Positions 61 through 7,927 of a stretch of 7,927 nt of DNA are shown here, piece by piece. Each line of letters opens with the position of its first letter. The first letter of the stretch is position 1. The position numbers and the translations under genes were made by a program. Source of the stretch: a virus (taxonomy: Duplodnaviria > Heunggongvirae > Uroviricota > Caudoviricetes). The stretch is taken from the IMG/VR virus record IMGVR_UViG_2713896776_000004. One strand, given 5' to 3'. The notes beneath the pieces are model-generated. The model saw only the letters and a program-made list of their open reading frames with translations. It made no database searches and was not told the DNA's origin.

Positions 61-150
61 GGCATCTTCAGTAAATACTGGGTTACTGATAGTGACACCA
101 ATTTCAAAACAACCTTCAGACGTATTAACGTTTGGTAATAACGTTTTCAT
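61..150 (-). pseudogene. dicB: dicB 5' fragment (codons 1-30), truncated by the IS1 end
   Basis: The reverse complement of 61-150 starts at ATG (148-150) and reads MKTLLPNVNTSEGCFEIGVTISNPVFTEDA, matching the DicB N-terminus as I remember it. The frame runs straight into the IS1 terminus at nt 60. A GAGGA Shine-Dalgarno lies at 158-162 on the - strand. Confidence 0.7.
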
Positions 151-167
151 TATCGCGTCCTCAACAA

Positions 168-315
168 TGAATTTTGTGATGCAGTGCCTGGTGCCTCCAG
201 GTGACGTTAACCAGTTAACAATTAACGCCGGATACAGAGAATCCACCCATAACACTGTTTTTGGTTTTAACTGTTCCGCGTGCGCTCAGCCGCATTCACC
301 ACATCACAAAATTCA
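168..315 (-). repeat. 14-bp perfect inverted repeat pair (168-181 and 302-315) flanking the dicF-dicB spacer
   Basis: TGAATTTTGTGATG at 168-181 and CATCACAAAATTCA at 302-315 are exact reverse complements. They sit just 3' of the DicF terminator and just 5' of the dicB Shine-Dalgarno. Confidence 0.5.
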
Positions 316-324
316 CTTTAAAAA

Positions 325-377
325 GGGCGGCAGAGCAGTCACGGAGTAAAACTGATACCGCCAAACGTCACCAGAAA
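325..377 (-). ncRNA. dicF: DicF small regulatory RNA (ftsZ/manX-targeting sRNA of the dicB operon)
   Basis: The reverse complement of 325-377 is TTTCTGGTGACGTTTGGCGGTATCAGTTTTACTCCGTGACTGCTCTGCCGCCC, followed by TTTTT. This matches the 53-nt DicF sequence from memory, including its GC-rich 3' stem and U-tract. Confidence 0.8.
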
Positions 378-402
378 ATTGATAACAGAGGGCGTTGCAG
401 CG

Positions 403-424
403 GGGTTGTCACTTAAGCGTATGG
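403..424 (+). repeat. Left copy of a 22-bp imperfect direct repeat (GGGTTGTCA core); also the half-site of a 9-bp inverted repeat with 431-439
   Basis: GGGTTGTCACTTAAGCGTATGG at 403-424 matches GGGTTGTCAGTTAAACTCGTGG at 1956-1977 at 17 of 22 positions, with an identical 9-mer core. TGACAACCC at 431-439 is the reverse complement of the core. Confidence 0.4.
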
Positions 425-755
425 TCAACCTGACAACCCGGTGTCCTCAACGGGGAAGGAATAACCCCGCCATACTTACCGCCGCGCCATTTCGCGGGTT
501 GCCACAACCGGAAGCGCACGGTCGACGAAAATTTAACGACAGGCTATCTATGAACCAGCTACCTCGCCGTGCGCTTTCGCGTTATGGTCTGACTTTTCAG
601 GGAAATATCCTTTCAGTAAACTGTCAGTGCCGGATGCTCACCCGTGTCCGGCGCACGCACTCCACCTCACCCGTGGAGAACTCCTTAATTACTAACCTTA
701 GCTTTGTTGATTAGCTACTAACGCGGGTAGCCGCGTGTCCACTATTGCTGGGTAA

Positions 756-1685
756 GATCAACCATCTTACGGTGAACTGATCCAGATTGATGGCTCACCT
801 CATGACTGGTTTGAAAATCGAGGCCCCAGATGTACACTGATCGTTTTCATTGATGATGCCGCCAGTGCGTTGATGGCGTTGCGTTTTGTGCCTGCTGAAA
901 CAACCCGGGCTTACATGGAAACCCTCCGGGGTTACCTTAATGATCATGGCGTACCGCTCGCTCTCTACTCTGATAGACACAGTATATTCAGGGTAAATAA
1001 CCCAGAGCGGGAAGGTGAGCTGACCCAGTTCACTCGTGCGATAAAGACACTGGGCATCGAGCCAATCCATGCCAACAGCCCGCAGGCAAAAGGGCGGGTA
1101 GAGCGCGCCAATCAGACACTACAGGACAGGCTGGTCAAAGAAATGCGGCTTCAGAATATCAGTGATATTGAAACAGCAAATGCATGGTTGCCGACTTTTA
1201 TTGAAGCCTATAACAACCGGTTCGCTACGTCGCCTCGTACTACTGATAATGCTCATCTTGATGTGCACCATTCTGAAGAGGAACTGGGTTATATCTTCAG
1301 CCTACAGGCGAAGCGCGTTCTGTCTAAAAATCTCACTTTCCAGTACAAAAGCAGTGCGTTTCAGGTACGCAGTGAGAGCCGGGGATATCGACTTAGGCAT
1401 TCGGTTGTTACTGTATGCGAGAACTTTGACGGTGAAATTAACGTTCTGTATGACGGGAAAGCGCTGGGCTGGGAAAAGTATGTTGATGGCCCGGAGCCTA
1501 TACCACTGGATGATGAAAAGAGTGTCCATGAACGAGTGGATAATGCCCGTATTGATTTACGCTCAAAATACTATGTTAAACCTAAAGCTGACCATCCCTG
1601 GCTTACGCGCCGAACGCAAAGTCATCAGCAAGTTAAGCCCCCGAAGTTACCTAAAAAGAAGCCTGATCCCGATAAAAAAGATTGA
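756..1685 (+). pseudogene. rve (integrase-core) DDE transposase remnant, N-terminal domain missing
   Basis: The open frame from 756 contains IQIDGSPHDWFE...LIVFIDDAAS...LYSDRHSIF...ANSPQAKGRVERANQTLQDRL, a D, D, E integrase-core pattern, and ends in a lysine-rich tail. An in-frame stop at 753-755 leaves no room for an N-terminal DNA-binding domain. The first ATG is at 873. The IS family is not assigned. Confidence 0.6.
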
Positions 1686-1739
1686 AACCAAGATCGATTC
1701 GGTTGAGTGCATATCCATTCATAGGGTAGATTCTTAAGT

Positions 1740-1805
1740 CGCGTTTCTGGTGTTCATTTTCGGGTGGTTTGTTACTTGTTTTACCGGGGATATGCCAGAA
1801 ACGCG
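1740..1805. repeat. 11-bp perfect inverted repeat with a 44-nt spacer, just after the transposase remnant
   Basis: CGCGTTTCTGG at 1740-1750 and CCAGAAACGCG at 1795-1805 are exact reverse complements. Confidence 0.4.
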
Positions 1806-1955
1806 CTGAGTCAGTCTGGGCGGTGCGCGTAATGAGGCGTTATGGTAAATAGCCTATGCTAATGTCCGCTAAGAGCAAGAAGCGGAAGTTGGCAGTTTTG
1901 TGGACTGTCCCCACAAAAGTGACTACAGAAATAGTTGCAATTCATAATTGATCAT

Positions 1956-1977
1956 GGGTTGTCAGTTAAACTCGTGG
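1956..1977 (+). repeat. Right copy of the 22-bp imperfect direct repeat (GGGTTGTCA core)
   Basis: See the 403-424 entry; 17 of 22 positions are identical, including the 9-mer GGGTTGTCA. Confidence 0.4.
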
Positions 1978-2084
1978 CGATTTAAATAGACTAATTGGGA
2001 GTGCGTCCATTACTTATATCTTGTAATGTTAACTATCAGAAATGATACAAAGATAATATGTCTTTAAAGAAAAGGCTGATGGCG

Positions 2085-2107
2085 AAAAGTGGCCCGATGA
2101 GGGCCAC
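2085..2107 (-). terminator. Putative intrinsic terminator downstream of flxA
   Basis: A 7-bp perfect stem GTGGCCC/GGGCCAC with a 5-nt loop lies at 2089-2107. On the - strand it is followed by TTTTCGCC, a short U-run, so it is probably weak. Confidence 0.4.
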
Positions 2108-2121
2108 AATACGGCTGTCAC

Positions 2122-2454
2122 TTAGACGTAAATATCAATGGTGCCAGCGGTATTTGTATCGTCTTTTTTCTCTTCTTTTTTATCAGGCTGAACTGTCGCG
2201 TCTTCATTCTTTTTCTCTGCCTGCTGCCTTAACAACTGCTCCAGTTGAGCCCAGAGGCTTTCAATTTGCTTCTGTACCAATGCAGCCATTTCTTTTTTCT
2301 GCTGTGTCGTCATCCCCTCTTCCGATGAGATTTTCCCAAGCTTTTCAGTCAGCACCTGAATTTGTCTTGTGATTTTGGCTATTTCTGATGTTCCTTCCGG
2401 GGCGGAGTTGTTTGAAATAACGGTTGAGGTATTTCCCTGAATTGTGACAGACAT
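2122..2454 (-). CDS. flxA: FlxA (FliA-regulated prophage protein)
   Basis: The 110-aa translation MSVTIQGNTSTVISNNSAPEGTSEIAKITRQ...TAGTIDIYV matches FlxA of the Qin prophage as I recall it. A GGAG Shine-Dalgarno precedes the ATG and a sigma28 promoter lies upstream. Confidence 0.9.
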   Translation of the reverse strand: MSVTIQGNTSTVISNNSAPEGTSEIAKITRQIQVLTEKLGKISSEEGMTTQQKKEMAALVQKQIESLWAQLEQLLRQQAEKKNEDATVQPDKKEEKKDDTNTAGTIDIYV

Positions 2455-2477
2455 AGATTTCTCCTTTTAAAAAAGCA

Positions 2478-2504
2478 CTATCGGCATGAACAAAAAAATC
2501 TTTA
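2478..2504 (-). promoter_or_regulatory. sigma28 (FliA) class-3 flagellar-type promoter for flxA
   Basis: The - strand reads TAAAGATT, then an 11-nt spacer, then GCCGATAG. The consensus is TAAAGTTT-N11-GCCGATAA. It sits about 25-50 nt upstream of the flxA start. Confidence 0.75.
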
Positions 2505-2656
2505 ATCGTATTTCTTGTGTCATTAATTGTTTGATGTTCAGATTGTTTTCCTCGCGGGCTGGCGCGCCTCAGAAAGTAAAGCTTGTTGACAGGGGTAAAC
2601 GTTCGGCAATAATTTTCTGCCGCATGCGGGTGTTGCATAAAACGTGTTACGTTCCT

Positions 2657-2962
2657 TTATCGACAGGTCAGGTCACCGCTCACCCGCCGACGAGAAAGCA
2701 ACACTGACATGCTAAAGCAAAAAATAGATGAATAAGTTGAGTTGTGCATATGTAGCCTGACCGTCACAAAGTATATGGTGTCTGTACCAGTAAGATGATG
2801 GCCGGACTCTTTAAAAACGAGCTGACCTGCACAATACAGGATGGACTTAGCAATGGCTGCTCCTGGCAGAAAGCGGACAGTGATCACCGTTCTTACGACT
2901 ACTTTCTGACTTCCTTCGTGACTTGCCCTAAGCATGTTGTAGTGCGATACTTGTAATGACAT
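2657..2962 (-). CDS. Doubtful 101-aa ORF, possibly the ydfV-equivalent reading frame
   Basis: This is a 101-aa ORF between flxA and relB, co-directional with flxA. Its length and position fit my memory of ydfV in K-12. The composition is poor (Ser/Arg/Val-rich) and the start codon lies inside the relBE operator, so it may not be expressed. Confidence 0.25.
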   Translation of the reverse strand: MSLQVSHYNMLRASHEGSQKVVVRTVITVRFLPGAAIAKSILYCAGQLVFKESGHHLTGTDTIYFVTVRLHMHNSTYSSIFCFSMSVLLSRRRVSGDLTCR

Positions 2963-2986
2963 TTGTAATTACAAGAGGTGTAAGAC
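2923..2986 (+). promoter_or_regulatory. relBE promoter and operator (relO)
   Basis: Operator repeats TTGTAAT-gacat-TTGTAATTACAA lie at 2951-2974; the last 12 nt are a perfect palindrome. A candidate -35 TTGCCC (2923-2928) and -10 GATACT (2946-2951) are 17 nt apart. The promoter elements are tentative. Confidence 0.6.
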
Positions 2987-3226
2987 ATGGGTAGCATTAA
3001 CCTGCGTATTGACGATGAACTTAAAGCGCGTTCTTACGCCGCGCTTGAAAAAATGGGTGTAACTCCTTCTGAAGCGCTTCGTCTCATGCTCGAGTATATC
3101 GCTGACAATGAACGCTTGCCGTTCAAACAGACACTCCTGAGTGATGAAGATGCTGAACTTGTGGAGATAGTGAAAGAACGGCTTCGTAATCCTAAGCCAG
3201 TACGTGTGACGCTGGATGAACTCTGA
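2987..3226 (+). CDS. relB: RelB antitoxin
   Basis: The 79-aa translation MGSINLRIDDELKARSYAALEKMGVTPSEALRLMLEYIADNERLPFKQTLLSDEDAELVEIVKERLRNPKPVRVTLDEL is near-identical to E. coli RelB from memory. Its stop overlaps the relE start (TGATG). Confidence 0.95.
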   Translation: MGSINLRIDDELKARSYAALEKMGVTPSEALRLMLEYIADNERLPFKQTLLSDEDAELVEIVKERLRNPKPVRVTLDEL

Positions 3227-3513
3227 TGGCGTATTTTCTGGATTTTGACGAGCGGGCACTAAAGGAATGGCGAAAGCTGGGCTCGACGGTACGTGAACAG
3301 TTGAAAAAGAAGCTGGTTGAAGTACTTGAGTCACCCCGGATTGAAGCAAACAAGCTCCGTGGTATGCCTGATTGTTACAAGATTAAGCTCCGGTCTTCAG
3401 GCTATCGCCTTGTATACCAGGTTATAGACGAGAAAGTTGTCGTTTTCGTGATTTCTGTTGGGAAAAGAGAACGCTCGGAAGTATATAGCGAGGCGGTCAA
3501 ACGCATTCTCTGA
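3226..3513 (+). CDS. relE: RelE mRNA-interferase toxin
   Basis: The 95-aa translation MAYFLDFDERALKEWRKLGSTVREQLKKKL...VISVGKRERSEVYSEAVKRIL matches RelE. It is translationally coupled to relB. Confidence 0.95.
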   Translation: MAYFLDFDERALKEWRKLGSTVREQLKKKLVEVLESPRIEANKLRGMPDCYKIKLRSSGYRLVYQVIDEKVVVFVISVGKRERSEVYSEAVKRIL

Positions 3514-3584
3514 ACCAAAGCATGACATCTCTGTTTCGCACCGAAGGTGACACTTCTGCTTTGCGTTGACAGGAGAAGCAGGCT

Positions 3585-3740
3585 ATGAAGCAGCAAAAGG
3601 CGATGTTAATCGCCCTGATCGTCATCTGTTTAACCGTCATAGTGACGGCACTGGTAACGAGGAAAGACCTCTGCGAGGTACGAATCCGAACCGGCCAGAC
3701 GGAGGTCGCTGTCTTCACAGCTTACGAACCTGAGGAGTAA
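3585..3740 (+). CDS. hokD: HokD (RelF), Hok-family small membrane toxin
   Basis: This 51-aa ORF is below the ORF-track size cutoff. It reads MKQQKAMLIALIVICLTVIVTALVTRKDLCEVRIRTGQTEVAVFTAYEPEE, with a hydrophobic helix and the Hok C-terminal motif. An AGGAG lies 11 nt upstream of the ATG. Confidence 0.9.
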   Translation: MKQQKAMLIALIVICLTVIVTALVTRKDLCEVRIRTGQTEVAVFTAYEPEE

Positions 3741-3808
3741 GAGACTCGGCGAGTGAGAAATCCCTCGCCACCTCTGATGTGGCAGGCATCCTCAACGCAC
3801 CCGCACTT

Positions 3809-3840
3809 AACCCGCTTCGGCGGGTTTTTGTTTTTATTTT
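3809..3840 (+). terminator. Intrinsic terminator of the relB-relE-hokD operon
   Basis: The stem is CCCGC-ttcg-GCGGG, followed by TTTTTGTTTTTATTTT. Confidence 0.8.
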
Positions 3841-3956
3841 CAACGCATTTGAAGTTCTGGATGGTGCCGGAATAGAATCAAAAATACTTAAGTAGCGCGC
3901 AGGGATAAGAGGGATGGTCCCTTAAAGGGGAGAGCTAATTATCCGGAAGGATTCTG

Positions 3957-4208
3957 ATGATGAACATCGAAGAACTGCGTAAAATTTTTTGTGAAGATGG
4001 CCTCTATGCTGTGTGCGTTGAAAATGGAAATATTGCTAGTCATTACCGCATTGTGTGTTTGCAAAAAAATGGGGCTGCGTTAATTAATTATGTGGATGCC
4101 CGAGTGACGGACGGATTTATCTTGCGCGACGGTGAGTTTGTCACTTCATTACAGGCATTGAAAGAGATCGGAATAAAAGCTGGCTTTTCTGCTTTTTCAG
4201 AAGAATAA
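3957..4208 (+). CDS. rem: Rem-like prophage protein of unknown function
   Basis: The 83-aa translation MMNIEELRKIFCEDGLYAVCVENGNIASHYRIVCLQKNGAALINYVDARVTDGFILRDGEFVTSLQALKEIGIKAGFSAFSEE fits my memory of Qin Rem. It has a GGAAGG ribosome-binding site, is AT-rich, and sits immediately downstream of hokD as in K-12. Confidence 0.75.
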   Translation: MMNIEELRKIFCEDGLYAVCVENGNIASHYRIVCLQKNGAALINYVDARVTDGFILRDGEFVTSLQALKEIGIKAGFSAFSEE

Positions 4209-4274
4209 ACTCATCTACAATCTTGCGCGGGGCTGAACTCCCGCTGAGTAACACCGTGCCACCGGAGAAAACCG

Positions 4275-4553
4275 ATGGCACGCAACGCAAAATATTACAA
4301 TCATGATAATTCGACCGTTCTTGCCCACACGCACGAGCGGTATTCTCACGCATTTAAGTCAGACTGGTACCAGCATCCCCCATGCACTGAAGAACAGGCC
4401 GAATGGCTCATTCAGTGTTACCGCAGGCGCGGATGCGAGGTTAAAAAAGCCCTTAGCCTCGACTACCGTCACTGGATAATCTCCGTCAGGCTTCCTTACT
4501 CCGAACGCCCACCGCGTCCGTCCCGCACATTCCAGCAACGCATCTGGAGGTAA
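4275..4553 (+). CDS. Hypothetical small Cys/His-containing prophage protein (92 aa), translationally coupled to the DUF968 gene
   Basis: A GGAG lies 7 nt upstream of the ATG at 4275. The translation MARNAKYYNHDNSTVLAHTHERYSHAFKSDWYQHPPCTEEQAEWLIQCYRRRGCEVKK... has no stops. Its TAA (4551-4553) sits between the GGAGG and the GTG start of the next gene. I could not assign a family. Confidence 0.5.
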   Translation: MARNAKYYNHDNSTVLAHTHERYSHAFKSDWYQHPPCTEEQAEWLIQCYRRRGCEVKKALSLDYRHWIISVRLPYSERPPRPSRTFQQRIWR

Positions 4554-4554
4554 C

Positions 4555-5604
4555 GTGCGGGTATTACTTCGACCTGTTCTGGTACCGGAACTCGGGCTGG
4601 TGATCGTTAAGCCGGGCCGTGAACCCATGCCGGTATTCCACAATACCCGGTTACTGGTGGAGCCGGAACCGAAAAGCATGCGTAATCTGCCGTCCGGGGT
4701 CGTTCCTGCCGCTCGCCAGCCGCTGGTGGAAGACAAAACATTGCTGCCGTTTTTCAGTAACGCACGGGTGATTCGTGCTGCTGGTGGTGCTGGTGCATTG
4801 TCTGACTGGCTGTTGCGCCATATTAAATCCTGCCAGTGGCCACACGGCGATTATCATCACAGCGAAACCGTCATTCACCGTTATGGTACCGGCGCAATGG
4901 TGTTGTGCTGGCACTGCGACAACCAGCTGCGTGACCAGACATCCGAATCACTCGAGCAACTAGCTCATCAAAACCTGTCAGCATGGATGATTGACGTCAT
5001 CGGTCACGCAATAAGCGGTACGCAGGAGCGTGAATTATCTCTGGCTGAATTATCCTGGTGGGCGGTCCGCAATCAGGTGGCGGACGCGCTACCGGAAGCG
5101 GTATTACGTCGTTCGCTGGGGTTGCGTGCGGAAAAAATCCGCTCAATGTACCGTGAAAGCGACATCGTACCGGGAGAGCAGACCGCCACCAGCATACTGA
5201 AACAGCGCACAAAAAATCTTGCACCGTTGCCTCACGCCCACCAGCAACAAAACCCATCACAAGAAAAGACGGTGGTAAGCATCACCGTTGATCCAGAGTC
5301 TCCGGAATCTTTCATGAAGCTGCCTAAACGTCACCGTTGGGTTAAGGAGAAATACACACGCTGGGTTAAGACACAGCCGTGTGCTTGCTGCGGTATGCCA
5401 GCCGACGATCCGCATCATCTGATTGGTCACGGGCAGGGCGGAATGGGAACCAAAGCACATGATCTCTTTGTGTTGCCTTTGTGCAGAAAGCATCACGACG
5501 AGTTGCATACGGATACCGTGGCATTTGAAGAGAAGTATGGCTCCCAACTGGAGCTGATTTTTCGATTTATCGATCGCGCGCTGGCAATTGGTGTGCTGGC
5601 CTAA
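4555..5604 (+). CDS. ydfU: DUF968-family prophage protein with a C-terminal HNH-like motif (YdfU-like)
   Basis: The 349-aa ORF has a GTG start with GGAGG 4 nt upstream. The C-terminus contains CACCG...[10 protein letters not shown]...[10 protein letters not shown] (a Cys pair, His-His and H-x3-H), typical of a beta-beta-alpha-metal HNH fold. A second Cys/His cluster ([11 protein letters not shown]...LCWHCDN) lies near residues 93-122. The size and position after rem match K-12 ydfU. Confidence 0.8.
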
Positions 5605-5621
5605 TTTTGTGGAGTAAGTTG

Positions 5622-5999
5622 ATGCGTGATATTCAGATGGTTCTTGAGCGTTGGGGGGCATGGGCTGCTAATAATCATGAAGATGTGACCTGGTCGTCCA
5701 TTGCCGCCGGTTTTAAGGGATTAATTCCTTCAAAAGTAAGATCTCGTCCGCAATGCTGTGACGATGACGCGATGATCATTTGTGAATGTATGGCTCGCCT
5801 GAAAAAAAACAACAGCGATTTACATGATTTATTGGTGGACTATTATGTCGGCGGCATGACTTTTATGGCGCTTGCACGTAAGCATGGGCGATCTGATTGT
5901 TGGGTTGGCAGGATGCTCCAGAAAGCTGAGGGCGTAGTGGAGGGCATGCTGATGGTGTTGGATCTCCGATTGGAGATGGATGCTGATTGTTCGAAATAA
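5622..5999 (+). CDS. Late-gene antiterminator Q (small phage-21/QuuD-like class)
   Basis: ATG at 5622 with GGAG 6 nt upstream gives 125 aa. The translation [34 protein letters not shown]...[37 protein letters not shown]... matches my memory of the DLP12 QuuD / phage 21 Q family. The ORF-track start at 5607 is a TTG that I consider less likely. Confidence 0.75.
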
Positions 6000-6011
6000 T
6001 TAAAGGAAAAG

Positions 6012-6040
6012 TTGCTGTCTGATTTTCATTAGTCTAACAT
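6012..6040 (+). promoter_or_regulatory. Candidate late promoter PR' (Q-utilisation region)
   Basis: -35 TTGCTG (6012-6017), a 17-nt spacer, then -10 TAACAT (6035-6040). It lies 13 nt after the Q stop and about 60 nt upstream of a strong terminator, as expected for a PR'/qut/tR' module. Confidence 0.4.
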
Positions 6041-6097
6041 TTTAAATGTTGGAATCGCAACGTAGTTATTATCATATAACAGCTTGTTTCCTGATTT

Positions 6098-6128
6098 AGC
6101 CAGCCTCCCCAAAGGCTGGTTTTTTTCT
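6098..6128 (+). terminator. tR'-like intrinsic terminator downstream of Q
   Basis: AGCCAGCC-tcccc aaa-GGCTGGTT stem followed by TTTTTTT. Confidence 0.75.
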
Positions 6129-6154
6129 AATAAGTATCATTTCGGGTGGGGATT

Positions 6155-6679
6155 TTATTGTTTAACCCATAATAGTTCATTGACATTGAATCCCAACTTT
6201 TGAGCGGTACGCACATAGTCTGCTTTTACATTATCTGGAATAGTTTGGGTCCTTGCCAGAATCCATAGGTATTCTCTGTTCGGACCACTGACAAGAGCAT
6301 ACTTATACTCATCATCCAGTTTGATTACATTATAGCCACCATAGAAGGGGCCAAAAAACGAAACTTTCAACGCTGCAGTTTTAGTATCTCCAGTAAAGTA
6401 TGCTTTACCTTCGCTCTCGCTCCATTTGTTTTTCGTTGGATCGTATCCACGGTTAAGTACGCGAATCCCTCCGTCGTTCCGTTTTTCATAAGTAGCGCTG
6501 ACCTGTTCCAGACCACGTTCGAACCAGTTCTCGAGGCGAGCTATTTCATACCATTTTCCGAGGTAGCGGTTGGCGTCAAAATTTGTAATCGGCTGCACAC
6601 CTTTAGGTGGTGTCGGGGCCTTACATGCTATAAGAGTGAAAGAGAGTGCAATGCCAGTCAACACAGGCCATAACTTCAT
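6155..6679 (-). CDS. Blc-family bacterial lipocalin, predicted outer-membrane lipoprotein
   Basis: The 174-aa translation has a signal peptide with lipobox LIAC (Cys19). Motifs NFDANRYLGKWYEIARLENWFERGLEQVSATY and GKAYFTGDTKTAALKVSFFGPFYGGYNVIKLD...YLWILARTQTI align with E. coli Blc at roughly half of positions, so it is divergent. The gene is AT-rich. Confidence 0.85.
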   Translation of the reverse strand: MKLWPVLTGIALSFTLIACKAPTPPKGVQPITNFDANRYLGKWYEIARLENWFERGLEQVSATYEKRNDGGIRVLNRGYDPTKNKWSESEGKAYFTGDTKTAALKVSFFGPFYGGYNVIKLDDEYKYALVSGPNREYLWILARTQTIPDNVKADYVRTAQKLGFNVNELLWVKQ

Positions 6680-6871
6680 AATAAATCCTGTACTTTTGAT
6701 AGTTGAGAGTAAGTATGAAAGATAGATGAGTACGACCGATCACTTAAAGAACTTTCCTACTATATTAGGAATAGTCAATAACAGAAAAATTGTCAGTGAT
6801 GAAGCCAGAAAGGCAATTTAGTCCGTGCACTACAAAGTTTATGTGTTAATGAATTAGTCAAGGGGGAGGAA

Positions 6872-7831
6872 ATGATAAAAAAACCTGTGATTGGGATCAG
6901 CGGTTGTTTGGGCGGTTCTGCTGTTCGTTTTGATGGTGGTCACAAAAGAGATGACTTTTTAATGGACAAATTAGTGGAATGGGTAACATTCAGACCAGTA
7001 TGTCCGGAAATGGCTATAGGGCTGCCAGTTCCGCGTCCTGCTCTACGACTTGTGCGCTCGAAGCAAGGAAATATACGGATGTGTTTCAGCCACGACCAGA
7101 ATGAGGATGTGACAGAGAGAATGACAGAGTTTAGTCGTTCTTATATGGACAAATTAAAGGATGTATCGGGGTTTGTGGTTTGTGCTAAATCTCCCAGCTG
7201 TGGCATGGAGCGCGTGCGTGTCTATGATGAAAATGGTAATCGAGGTCGTAAAGATGGAGTGGGACTATTTACGAGCACTTTGATGGAAAAGTTTTCCTGG
7301 CTACCGGTTGAAGAGGATGGGCGATTACATGATCCAGTGCTTCGTGAGAATTTTATTGAAAGAGTTTTTGCTTTGCATGAGCTCAATCACCTTTACAAGG
7401 AGAAATTATCAAGAAGAGAGTTATTAGCTTTTCATAGTCGTTATAAGCTTCAGTTGTTGGCGCATAGCCAGGCAGGCTATAAAGATATGGGACCATTTGT
7501 GGCTGCAATACACGAGTGGGCGGACCTTGAATCATACTTTGAGGTGTATCGTGATAATCTGATGGCGATTCTCAGAAAACCAGCATCACGTAAAAATCAC
7601 ACGAATGTGCTGATGCATATACAGGGGTATTTTAGTAATTACTTAAGTACACGCCAGCGTAAAGAGTTGAGCGAGGTTATACTTAACTATCGCTTTGGCA
7701 CATTGCCTCTTCTTGCGCCGTTGACTCTGCTGAAGCATTATCTGGGTGAGTATCCTAATGATTACTTGCTTACACAGAATTACTTCGATCCCTATCCGGA
7801 AGAACTGGCTCTAAGACTGATGGTGAATTAA
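6872..7831 (+). CDS. DUF523 (TudS-like Fe-S domain) - DUF1722 (YbgA-like) fusion protein
   Basis: A strong Shine-Dalgarno GGGGGAGG precedes the ATG at 6872. The 319-aa protein begins MIKKPVIGISGCLGGSAVRFDGGHKRDDF, with conserved Cys at 12, 44 (PVCPEM) and 104/110 (CAKSPSCG). The C-terminal half resembles YbgA/DUF1722. The gene is AT-rich. Confidence 0.8.
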   Translation: MIKKPVIGISGCLGGSAVRFDGGHKRDDFLMDKLVEWVTFRPVCPEMAIGLPVPRPALRLVRSKQGNIRMCFSHDQNEDVTERMTEFSRSYMDKLKDVSGFVVCAKSPSCGMERVRVYDENGNRGRKDGVGLFTSTLMEKFSWLPVEEDGRLHDPVLRENFIERVFALHELNHLYKEKLSRRELLAFHSRYKLQLLAHSQAGYKDMGPFVAAIHEWADLESYFEVYRDNLMAILRKPASRKNHTNVLMHIQGYFSNYLSTRQRKELSEVILNYRFGTLPLLAPLTLLKHYLGEYPNDYLLTQNYFDPYPEELALRLMVN

Positions 7832-7867
7832 CTGTATGCGATATCATCTGAAAGTGATGAGTTCCTG

Positions 7868-7927
7868 GGTAATGACTCCAACTTATTGATAGTGTTTTAT
7901 GTTCAGATAATGCCCGATGACTTTGTC
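7868..7927 (-). mobile_element. IS1 terminal fragment (right inverted repeat end), inverted relative to the copy at 1-60
   Basis: GGTAATGACTCCAACTTATTGATAG... at 7868-7927 is the exact reverse complement of nt 1-60. Confidence 0.9.

Follow-up and report, generated by a model that had tools for sequence, protein, structure and literature searches.

The stretch of DNA analysed here (the window; 7,927 nucleotides, IMG/VR virus record IMGVR_UViG_2713896776_000004) is a Qin-type prophage remnant. Close to its right-hand end, between a Q-type late antiterminator gene and the gene for RudS, lies a gene for a lipocalin of the Blc family, whose carriage, origin and possible role are the subject of this work. 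The gene and its predicted export signal are:

6155..6679, minus strand: lipocalin lipoprotein gene, 174 aa, ATG start; Blc family, MerR/RudS-linked paralogue group
6623..6679, minus strand: predicted type II signal peptide with lipobox L16-I17-A18-C19 (sequence reading and pattern match)

The Pfam domain Lipocalin_2 (PF08212) matches the protein with an E-value of 7.5e-43, and the NCBIfam model NF007786, ‘outer membrane lipoprotein Blc’, covers residues 1-174 with 312.6 bits, for a curated cutoff of 267 bits. The structures of E. coli Blc (3MBT, 1QWD and 2ACO) align ungapped with E-values of ~1e-66 (best, 8e-67), and the identity to Blc of strain K-12 is 59% (102/174, no gaps). This ungapped match to solved chains supports a predicted lipocalin fold, an eight-stranded barrel with a C-terminal helix. 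AlphaFold2, run on a 36-sequence alignment, returned a poor lipocalin model (pLDDT of 63.9, TM-score of ~0.4 to Blc), which was left unused for pocket analysis; it matched only Blc and other lipocalins and adds nothing over the sequence match. The window lipocalin retains A36, V74 and L141, the cavity residues that were altered in the DiB proteins. In the PHROG classification, the phage lipocalin is assigned to phrog_2809, annotated there as function unknown.

The N-terminus, MKLWPVLTGIALSFTLIAC followed by K, agrees with the lipoprotein signal pattern: its n-region contains K2, and residues 16-19 are LIAC. The lipobox is present in every aligned homologue, and Cys19 is the predicted lipidated N-terminus of the mature lipocalin. 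Residue +2 after this cysteine is a lysine (K20), not an aspartate. An earlier, sequence-only reading of the locus had described a Blc-family lipoprotein with a clear lipobox, a description borne out by the Pfam, NCBIfam and structure matches and by the LIAC motif. It had also called the gene AT-rich, which is true, if only to a modest degree: the GC content is 43.8% (0.41 at third codon positions, GC3), compared with 46.5% for the whole window, 46.8% for Q and 54.1% for ydfU. The intergenic stretches on either side of the gene have 34-36% GC.

About 8,000 lipocalin homologues were retrieved by sequence search. In pairwise comparisons of six phage and prophage alleles, the ratio of nonsynonymous to synonymous substitution rates (dN/dS) was 0.06-0.23 for the lipocalin, with dS values up to 0.20, and 0.11-0.28 for RudS. 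The lipocalin is under purifying selection, and the large number of homologues together with the low dN/dS make 6155-6679 a real, conserved gene and exclude a chance open reading frame. The protein has also been measured. WP_000780581.1, the accession annotated in the prophage of strain 144, was quantified in E. coli CCUG 70745 by tandem mass tag (TMT) proteomics and was 1.99- and 2.98-fold up at 15 min of meropenem (PMC13459554), a quantification that could, in principle, include peptides common to canonical Blc. The envelope-stress proteins that rose with it include Spy, PspC, YcfJ, YgdI and MliC, and the authors name the lipocalin ‘Blc’ (PMC13459554). The dN/dS values and this published detection argue that the lipocalin is functional.

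Carriage in lambdoid phages and prophages

In phages and prophages, the module order is Q / lipocalin (minus strand) / RudS / AraC-like gene / holin. The two direct neighbours of the lipocalin gene in the window are:

5607..5999, plus strand: Q-type late antiterminator, 130 aa (Pfam Phage_antitermQ, E-value 8e-51; phrog_79)
6872..7831, plus strand: RudS (TudS desulfidase plus DUF1722), 319 aa (Pfam PF04463 and PF08349; phrog_3275 over its full length)

Q forms the upstream boundary of the moron slot and precedes the lipocalin in all phage and prophage copies. The lipocalin gene is opposite in strand to Q and to the downstream genes of the late direction, as the sequence-only reading had noted. 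RudS, which is intact in the window, is the constant partner of the lipocalin, divergently oriented and 192 bp apart in the phage.

Twelve isolated Escherichia phages (Jouyvirus 1H12, ten related Lambda_* isolates and IdasGreatGrand) carry the lipocalin with 96-97% protein identity and the module order kept; these are the only 12 Escherichia phage records with the gene in the phage collection of 50,697 records. In IMG/VR, all 80 contigs keep the module order as far as their flanks reach, 58 of them exactly. The gene is also common in E. coli genomes. It is carried by 1,135 of 5,426 complete E. coli genomes, in up to three copies per genome, almost all of them chromosomal, and is full length in 1,042 of the 1,135 (92%). 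Q, lipocalin and RudS occur in one piece in 996 of the 5,426 genomes.

The same lipocalin block is held by two different prophage backbones. At the rspB/ydfJ (Qin) site, an intact prophage reads ydfU - Q - lipocalin (minus strand) - YbgA-family gene - AraC-type helix-turn-helix (HTH) gene - holin - lysozyme - spanin - terminase - head - tail, and the lambda-like backbone reads cI/cII/O/P/nin/rusA - Q - lipocalin - YbgA - HTH - holin - rrrD - rzpD - iss. BL21(DE3) has an identical intact lipocalin (WP_000780584.1) next to a RudS gene cut by IS3. In the Qin prophage of K-12, the moron slot is occupied by cspF/cspB/ynfU, and Q is ydfT.

The gene therefore sits in a slot between conserved Q and holin modules that holds other cargo in K-12 Qin, it is present in viable packaged phage genomes, and its base composition is off from that of the neighbouring phage genes. 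It is a lysogenic-conversion (moron) gene of lambdoid phages and not a chromosomal or IS1-borne gene. The prophage moron position proposed from the sequence is the classical Q-to-lysis slot of a lambdoid prophage.

This moron status has already been published. Mathieu et al. 2020 (PMC6969025) reported ‘blc, a bacterial lipocalin’ as a predicted moron in >50% of 19 lambda-like coliphages, and GenBank records of these phages label it ‘Lipocalin Blc’ (e.g., 1H12 gp65). That paper lists the lipocalin as a predicted moron only, giving neither origin nor function. A literature search for functional work on the phage lipocalin found just this listing and the 2026 proteomics table; in Maruyama 2022, lipocalins are unmentioned. 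The new point here is the origin from a distinct paralogue, probably captured jointly with RudS from a light-stress type of gene cluster in other enteric bacteria.

Three further observations concern the module and its relatives. An AraC-family (HTH_18) regulator of 237-243 aa lies between RudS and holin in intact prophages and phages (locus L001, 22639-23352; locus L003, 2417-3148); the copies in viral contigs often have frameshifts. Its targets could be the module itself or genes of the host, and it resembles PatE and PsrA/B, AraC-like prophage regulators of enterohaemorrhagic E. coli. Morganella phage IME1369_01 (locus L005, 6001-6516) encodes a Blc-like lipoprotein of a different lineage (50% identity, 39% GC), placed between the lysis genes and the small terminase gene in late orientation, which suggests an independent lipocalin capture by another temperate phage. 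Finally, the 2.1-kb contig JARKOR010000135.1 of a ‘Candidatus Nanosynbacter’ metagenome-assembled genome (MAG) contains Q and lipocalin genes 97-98% identical to those of the E. coli phages; its presence in that MAG is most likely due to contamination during binning.

Origin in a second enterobacterial Blc paralogue

The nearest non-phage proteins share 73-80% identity with the window lipocalin. Their loci were read in six Enterobacter species, Leclercia, Buttiauxella, Raoultella, Cedecea and several metagenome contigs. In every readable locus, Huaxiibacter excepted, the lipocalin gene is divergent from a MerR/MlrA-like regulator gene, which is followed by RudS on the same strand. The regulator gene and RudS are direct neighbours, are separated by a transthyretin-like gene or, in Cedecea, enclose an operon of eight genes encoding SnoaL, a short-chain dehydrogenase/reductase (SDR), an amine oxidase, DUF1365, a cyclopropane fatty acid (CFA) synthase, DUF2878, a chalcone-isomerase-like protein and DUF3833. 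The chromosomal RudS proteins of these loci are 70-72% identical to the window RudS.

Canonical blc genes, with sugE/gdx and ampC as neighbours, encode proteins of only 56-61% identity to the window lipocalin, and Buttiauxella izardii holds both paralogues. In a neighbour-joining tree (200 bootstraps), the phage proteins form a clade with a support of 1.00, which joins the MerR-linked group with 0.98; the canonical enteric group, including K-12 Blc, is separately supported (0.98). The clade of phage and MerR-linked proteins also takes in sequences of Kosakonia, Pantoea and Symbiopectobacterium. The phage gene shares neither the ampC-blc-gdx/sugE synteny of E. coli blc nor its clade. Since it falls in a separate clade and has MerR/RudS-linked relatives, the phage lipocalin is, as judged from sequence comparison, the orthologue of a second enterobacterial Blc paralogue. 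The sequence-only reading had considered it divergent from chromosomal Blc and had asked for a phylogeny, which places it outside the canonical group. It is indeed clearly distinct (59% identity), but as an orthologue of this second paralogue and not as a diverged copy of E. coli blc.

Of the chromosomal cluster, the phage has the two end genes, lipocalin and RudS, without the regulator and the middle genes. Both phage genes have 43-44% GC, versus 51-60% in the chromosomal orthologues, and this shared low value suggests either that the two have resided together in phages for a long time or that they stem from a low-GC donor not yet sampled. No donor genome in which lipocalin and RudS are already adjacent was found, the closest homologues (77-80% identity) all having MerR between them. 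The proposed origin by collapse of the cluster is drawn from the protein trees and synteny, not from non-coding homology. In Huaxiibacter chinensis (locus L017, 9140-10000), the MerR gene between lipocalin and RudS seems to have decayed: its start codon is gone, and tblastn gave no hit. Huaxiibacter appears to be a natural intermediate, in which the regulator is lost and both flanking genes are kept. Separately, an AT-rich lipocalin gene of a Scandinavium MAG (L022, 745-1266; 42.5% GC) encodes a third lipocalin paralogue. It was considered as another phage capture and rejected, as it is chromosomal, with catalase, parE and tolC as neighbours.

The partner gene has a known activity. RudS removes 4-thiouridine from tRNA, and overexpression of the orthologue of phage 1H12, ‘RudS_vir’ (gp66), lowers the 4-thiouridine content of E. 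coli tRNA (PMC11417400). E. coli has no native RudS, and RudS genes occur in light-responsive MerR/LitR operons, induction by light, ultraviolet A or oxidants being known for RudS operons in Pseudomonas (PMC11417400). In V. cholerae, the MerR-like VCA0056 and ChrR mediate the blue-light response, CFA synthase included (PMC5241685), and in S. maltophilia a lipocalin gene ends a cfa operon controlled by RpoEc-ChrR, being 165-fold up in a chrR mutant (PMC11832516). The SDR, amine oxidase, DUF1365 and CFA synthase genes of Cedecea are a set of the kind controlled elsewhere by regulators of photo-oxidative stress. In the phage, the lipocalin likewise lies beside RudS, as expected of a light or photo-oxidative stress cluster.

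Control region and surroundings

Lipocalin and RudS are separated by a short divergent region with the following elements:

6680..6871, no strand: divergent control region of lipocalin and RudS, 192 bp, AT-rich, 34% GC
6686-6689, minus strand: AGGA Shine-Dalgarno sequence
6712-6717, minus strand: -10-like CATACT, placed where chromosomal blc genes have their CTACACT -10 (sigma-S type)
6754-6766, minus strand: block AATATAGTAGGAA, from the collinear alignment
6825-6834, plus strand: 10-mer GTGCACTACA, upstream of RudS

When the 230 nt upstream of the lipocalin were aligned with MAFFT, the phage and 12 chromosomal loci proved collinear over ~90 nt, including the block AATATA(C/G)TA(C/G)GAA. The similarity ends where the start codon of MerR would be. 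The -10-like element reads TGCACTACACTTA in the chromosomal loci, CTACACTTA in K-12 blc and tCATACTTA or tAATACTTA in the phages. A scan of 6680-6871 with the sigma-70 consensus found no convincing promoter, and the sharing of the 10-mer GTGCACTACA is within chance expectation. Promoter and regulation of the lipocalin gene are therefore putative. An Rfam scan found nothing near the lipocalin gene.

A different element is seen at the other end of the chromosomal clusters. An inverted repeat, ACTTGGACAAA-N8-TTGTGTAAGT, is conserved 25-55 nt upstream of chromosomal RudS (L010, 8575-8604, minus strand; equivalents in L009 and L011-L015). It looks like a MerR-type operator/promoter and is a candidate site for the adjacent MerR/MlrA-like regulator. 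It is unrecognisable in the phage copies.

The remaining features of the window are:

325-376, minus strand: DicF small RNA (Rfam RF00039, 76.7 bits), as in the K-12 Qin prophage
870-1685, plus strand: transposase fragment with rve_3 integrase core, of the IS1202-like ISEsa1 family by annotation of matching genomes, inside the prophage early region
2122-5604: flxA, ydfV, relB, relE, hokD, rem and ydfU, arranged as in K-12 Qin
6098..6128, plus strand: tR'-like intrinsic terminator of a short late leader (terminator scan), a 9-bp G+C-rich stem followed by T7
7868..7927, no strand: IS1 end (sequence comparison and annotation of matching genomes)

The window Q (130 aa) differs in type from YdfT of K-12 (250 aa), which marks a mosaic breakpoint at the ydfU/Q boundary. 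Downstream of Q, the hairpin at 6098-6128 folds at -14.9 kcal/mol (z of -3.35), none of 200 shuffled sequences being equally stable. Read on the minus strand, it sits 26 nt beyond the stop codon of the lipocalin gene and has no U-tract.

In the window strain, the IS1 copy starting at 7868 takes the place of the AraC-like and lysis genes. Positions 1-60 are the same IS1 terminus as at 7868-7927 (GGTAATGACTCC...), inverted. The 7.8-kb segment from dicF to RudS (61-7867) is bracketed by the two IS1 copies and possibly constitutes a composite-transposon-like unit. The sequence-only reading had suggested a survey for IS1 association in other strains, and each IS1 junction of the window occurs in only 4 of the 5,426 complete E. 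coli genomes. The IS1 association is therefore a strain-specific accident.

Possible role and comparison with known systems

We consider it rather probable that this moron supplies the lysogen with an outer-membrane, lipid-binding lipocalin, which was captured together with RudS and is of benefit under stress. The protein would be processed by Sec, Lgt and LspA and anchored through Cys19; Lol would then sort it to the outer membrane, as position +2 is not Asp. By analogy with E. coli Blc, which takes lysophospholipids and fatty acids, the barrel may bind amphipathic lipids. Its own putative promoter would drive the gene antisense to the Q-dependent late transcript, so that the lipocalin would be made in the lysogen and opposed by late transcription in lytic growth. 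E. coli, natively without both genes, would gain a stress cassette of two genes, free of regulation or regulated in another way. Its likely benefit lies in envelope-lipid protection and tRNA de-thiolation under near-ultraviolet, oxidative or envelope stress, with a putative functional coupling between the two proteins.

A more specific proposal, which we hold only tentatively, is that lipocalin and RudS act jointly as a phage-borne sunlight (near-ultraviolet/photo-oxidative) tolerance cassette, salvaged from the MerR-controlled cluster. RudS would strip 4-thiouridine, which is sensitive to ultraviolet A (UVA), from tRNA, and the lipocalin would clear or transport photo-oxidised lipids or lyso-lipids of the envelope. 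If true, E. coli lysogens would have improved survival outside the gut, or light would modulate the induction of the prophage.

Several observations weigh against a stress-related lysogen function. No homologue of the cognate MerR-family regulator was found in the window or in the phage loci, where an AraC-family gene follows RudS instead, and with its loss any light or UVA regulation has probably been lost from the phage module. The phage -10-like element is without the -13C/-12T of CTACACT, and searches of the phage intergenic region with nhmmer profiles of the chromosomal regions upstream of lipocalin and of RudS did not reach significance (E >= 1.3). Among lipocalin loci further afield, such as those of Flavobacterium and Microbulbifer, cfa or RudS neighbours are absent except in one MAG; the stress association is therefore clade-specific. 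Codon 52 (window 6524-6526) encodes Trp in the window and BL21 allele, in place of the Arg of the other phage alleles and of at least 90% of relatives (motif RFERG), and 409 of the 1,135 carrier genomes have an allele of this W52 class (>=99% identity). The possible sharing of peptides with canonical Blc in the proteomic data, mentioned above, belongs here as well.

Some of these points would suit a neutral passenger, useless in E. coli and kept by its position between Q and the RudS/lysis genes of a successful mosaic block. The module is near-invariant, so that linkage alone could carry the lipocalin; the ancestral cluster regulator is lost, the promoter signal is weak, and R52W in the window allele is a non-conservative change. 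However, the dN/dS of 0.06-0.23 across alleles (at dS up to 0.20), the 92% of copies that are full length, the intact lipocalin of BL21(DE3) beside a destroyed RudS, and a protein that is detected and stress-responsive speak against it. A pure passenger role is disfavoured, and we regard this explanation as unlikely.

The chances are considerably poorer for superinfection exclusion by receptor masking, an idea put forward in the sequence-only reading. The lipoprotein would then protect the lysogen from other phages by making a receptor in the outer membrane unavailable to them, as Cor and Llp do with FhuA. This explanation draws on a prophage-encoded, predicted outer-membrane lipoprotein expressed independently of late genes, and on the bor/iss and sieB-type genes that the module phages also carry, envelope morons being common there. 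The results give it no support. Only lipocalin families match the window protein, which has no similarity to Cor or Llp and gives no hit to any PADLOC defence model. Linkage to a receptor-binding tail module is likewise missing: the lipocalin always lies between Q and RudS/holin, next to the lysis genes, and it rides on different backbones. That it is still 73-80% identical to chromosomal orthologues from stress clusters outside phages, and is under purifying selection, is more in keeping with an ancestral function that has been kept.

A function in lytic growth, for example in outer-membrane lipid handling at lysis or in virion adsorption to debris, has a slimmer chance still. The lipocalin gene does adjoin the lysis cassette, and the unrelated Morganella phage IME1369_01 has its late-oriented Blc-like lipoprotein between lysis and terminase genes, but here the Q-dependent late transcript must read antisense through the lipocalin gene, which should suppress rather than express it. 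That the lipocalin is a chromosomal or IS1-borne islet gene merely abutting a prophage remnant, as the sequence-only reading had allowed and as the inverted IS1 ends around 61-7867 might suggest, is refuted to the point of a negligible probability by the packaged phages and the 80 viral contigs with the same gene order, by the holin, head and tail genes that follow in intact prophages, and by the rarity of each IS1 junction.

The lysogen-made stress lipocalin that we prefer has some practical consequences. About one in five sequenced E. coli strains, including BL21(DE3), holds an extra prophage lipocalin. Databases and at least one proteomics paper call it plain ‘Blc’, thereby conflating it with the chromosomal gene. 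As a paralogue travelling with RudS, it offers a testable stress-cassette hypothesis (envelope stress, UVA tolerance), and it illustrates cleanly how a phage can retain no more than the effector ends of a regulated stress cluster of host origin.

Among known systems, Smlt2367 of S. maltophilia (PMC11832516) is a lipocalin in a stress cluster with CFA synthase and a flavin adenine dinucleotide (FAD) oxidoreductase, as in the Cedecea cluster; the likeness noted is one of context. It is under sigma/anti-sigma rather than MerR-type control and is not phage-borne. Lambda Bor/Iss and Cor/Llp are, like the predicted product of this moron, prophage-encoded outer-membrane lipoproteins of the lysogen, and bor/iss occur in the module-carrying phages. 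Bor is also antisense to late transcription. Nevertheless, the folds and families of these proteins are unrelated to the lipocalin, they are much smaller, and Cor is linked to tail genes.

E. coli Blc is reportedly an outer-membrane lipocalin dependent on sigma S, with lysophospholipids and fatty acids as ligands. Blc (b4149; PDB 1QWD, 2ACO and 3MBT) has the lipobox, the GxW motif and the position of the -10-like element in common with the window lipocalin, but it is a different paralogue, in the ampC-blc-gdx(sugE) context and in a separate clade (bootstrap 0.98). Signature residues distinguish the MerR/RudS-linked clade from canonical Blc: CK(A/S)PTPPKGV versus CSSPTPP, LEN versus FDH, and ALVSGP versus ALVCGP. 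The closest relatives are the chromosomal MerR/RudS-linked paralogues, which share the clade, the divergent orientation to RudS and the collinear first ~90 nt upstream. Their loci contain the MerR/MlrA-like regulator and a transthyretin-like gene or the eight-gene cfa-type operon at 51-60% GC, whereas the phage has neither, at 44% GC.

The nearest known system is the ‘blc’ moron of lambda-like coliphages (1H12 gp65, phrog_2809), which is the same gene, with 96-97% identity, in the same module. Nothing essential differs between the two. The window copy is the Qin-site W52 allele, with a protein identical to that of BL21(DE3), in an IS1-truncated remnant, and it is a phage moron already known and annotated, from an established protein family, rather than a new class of system.

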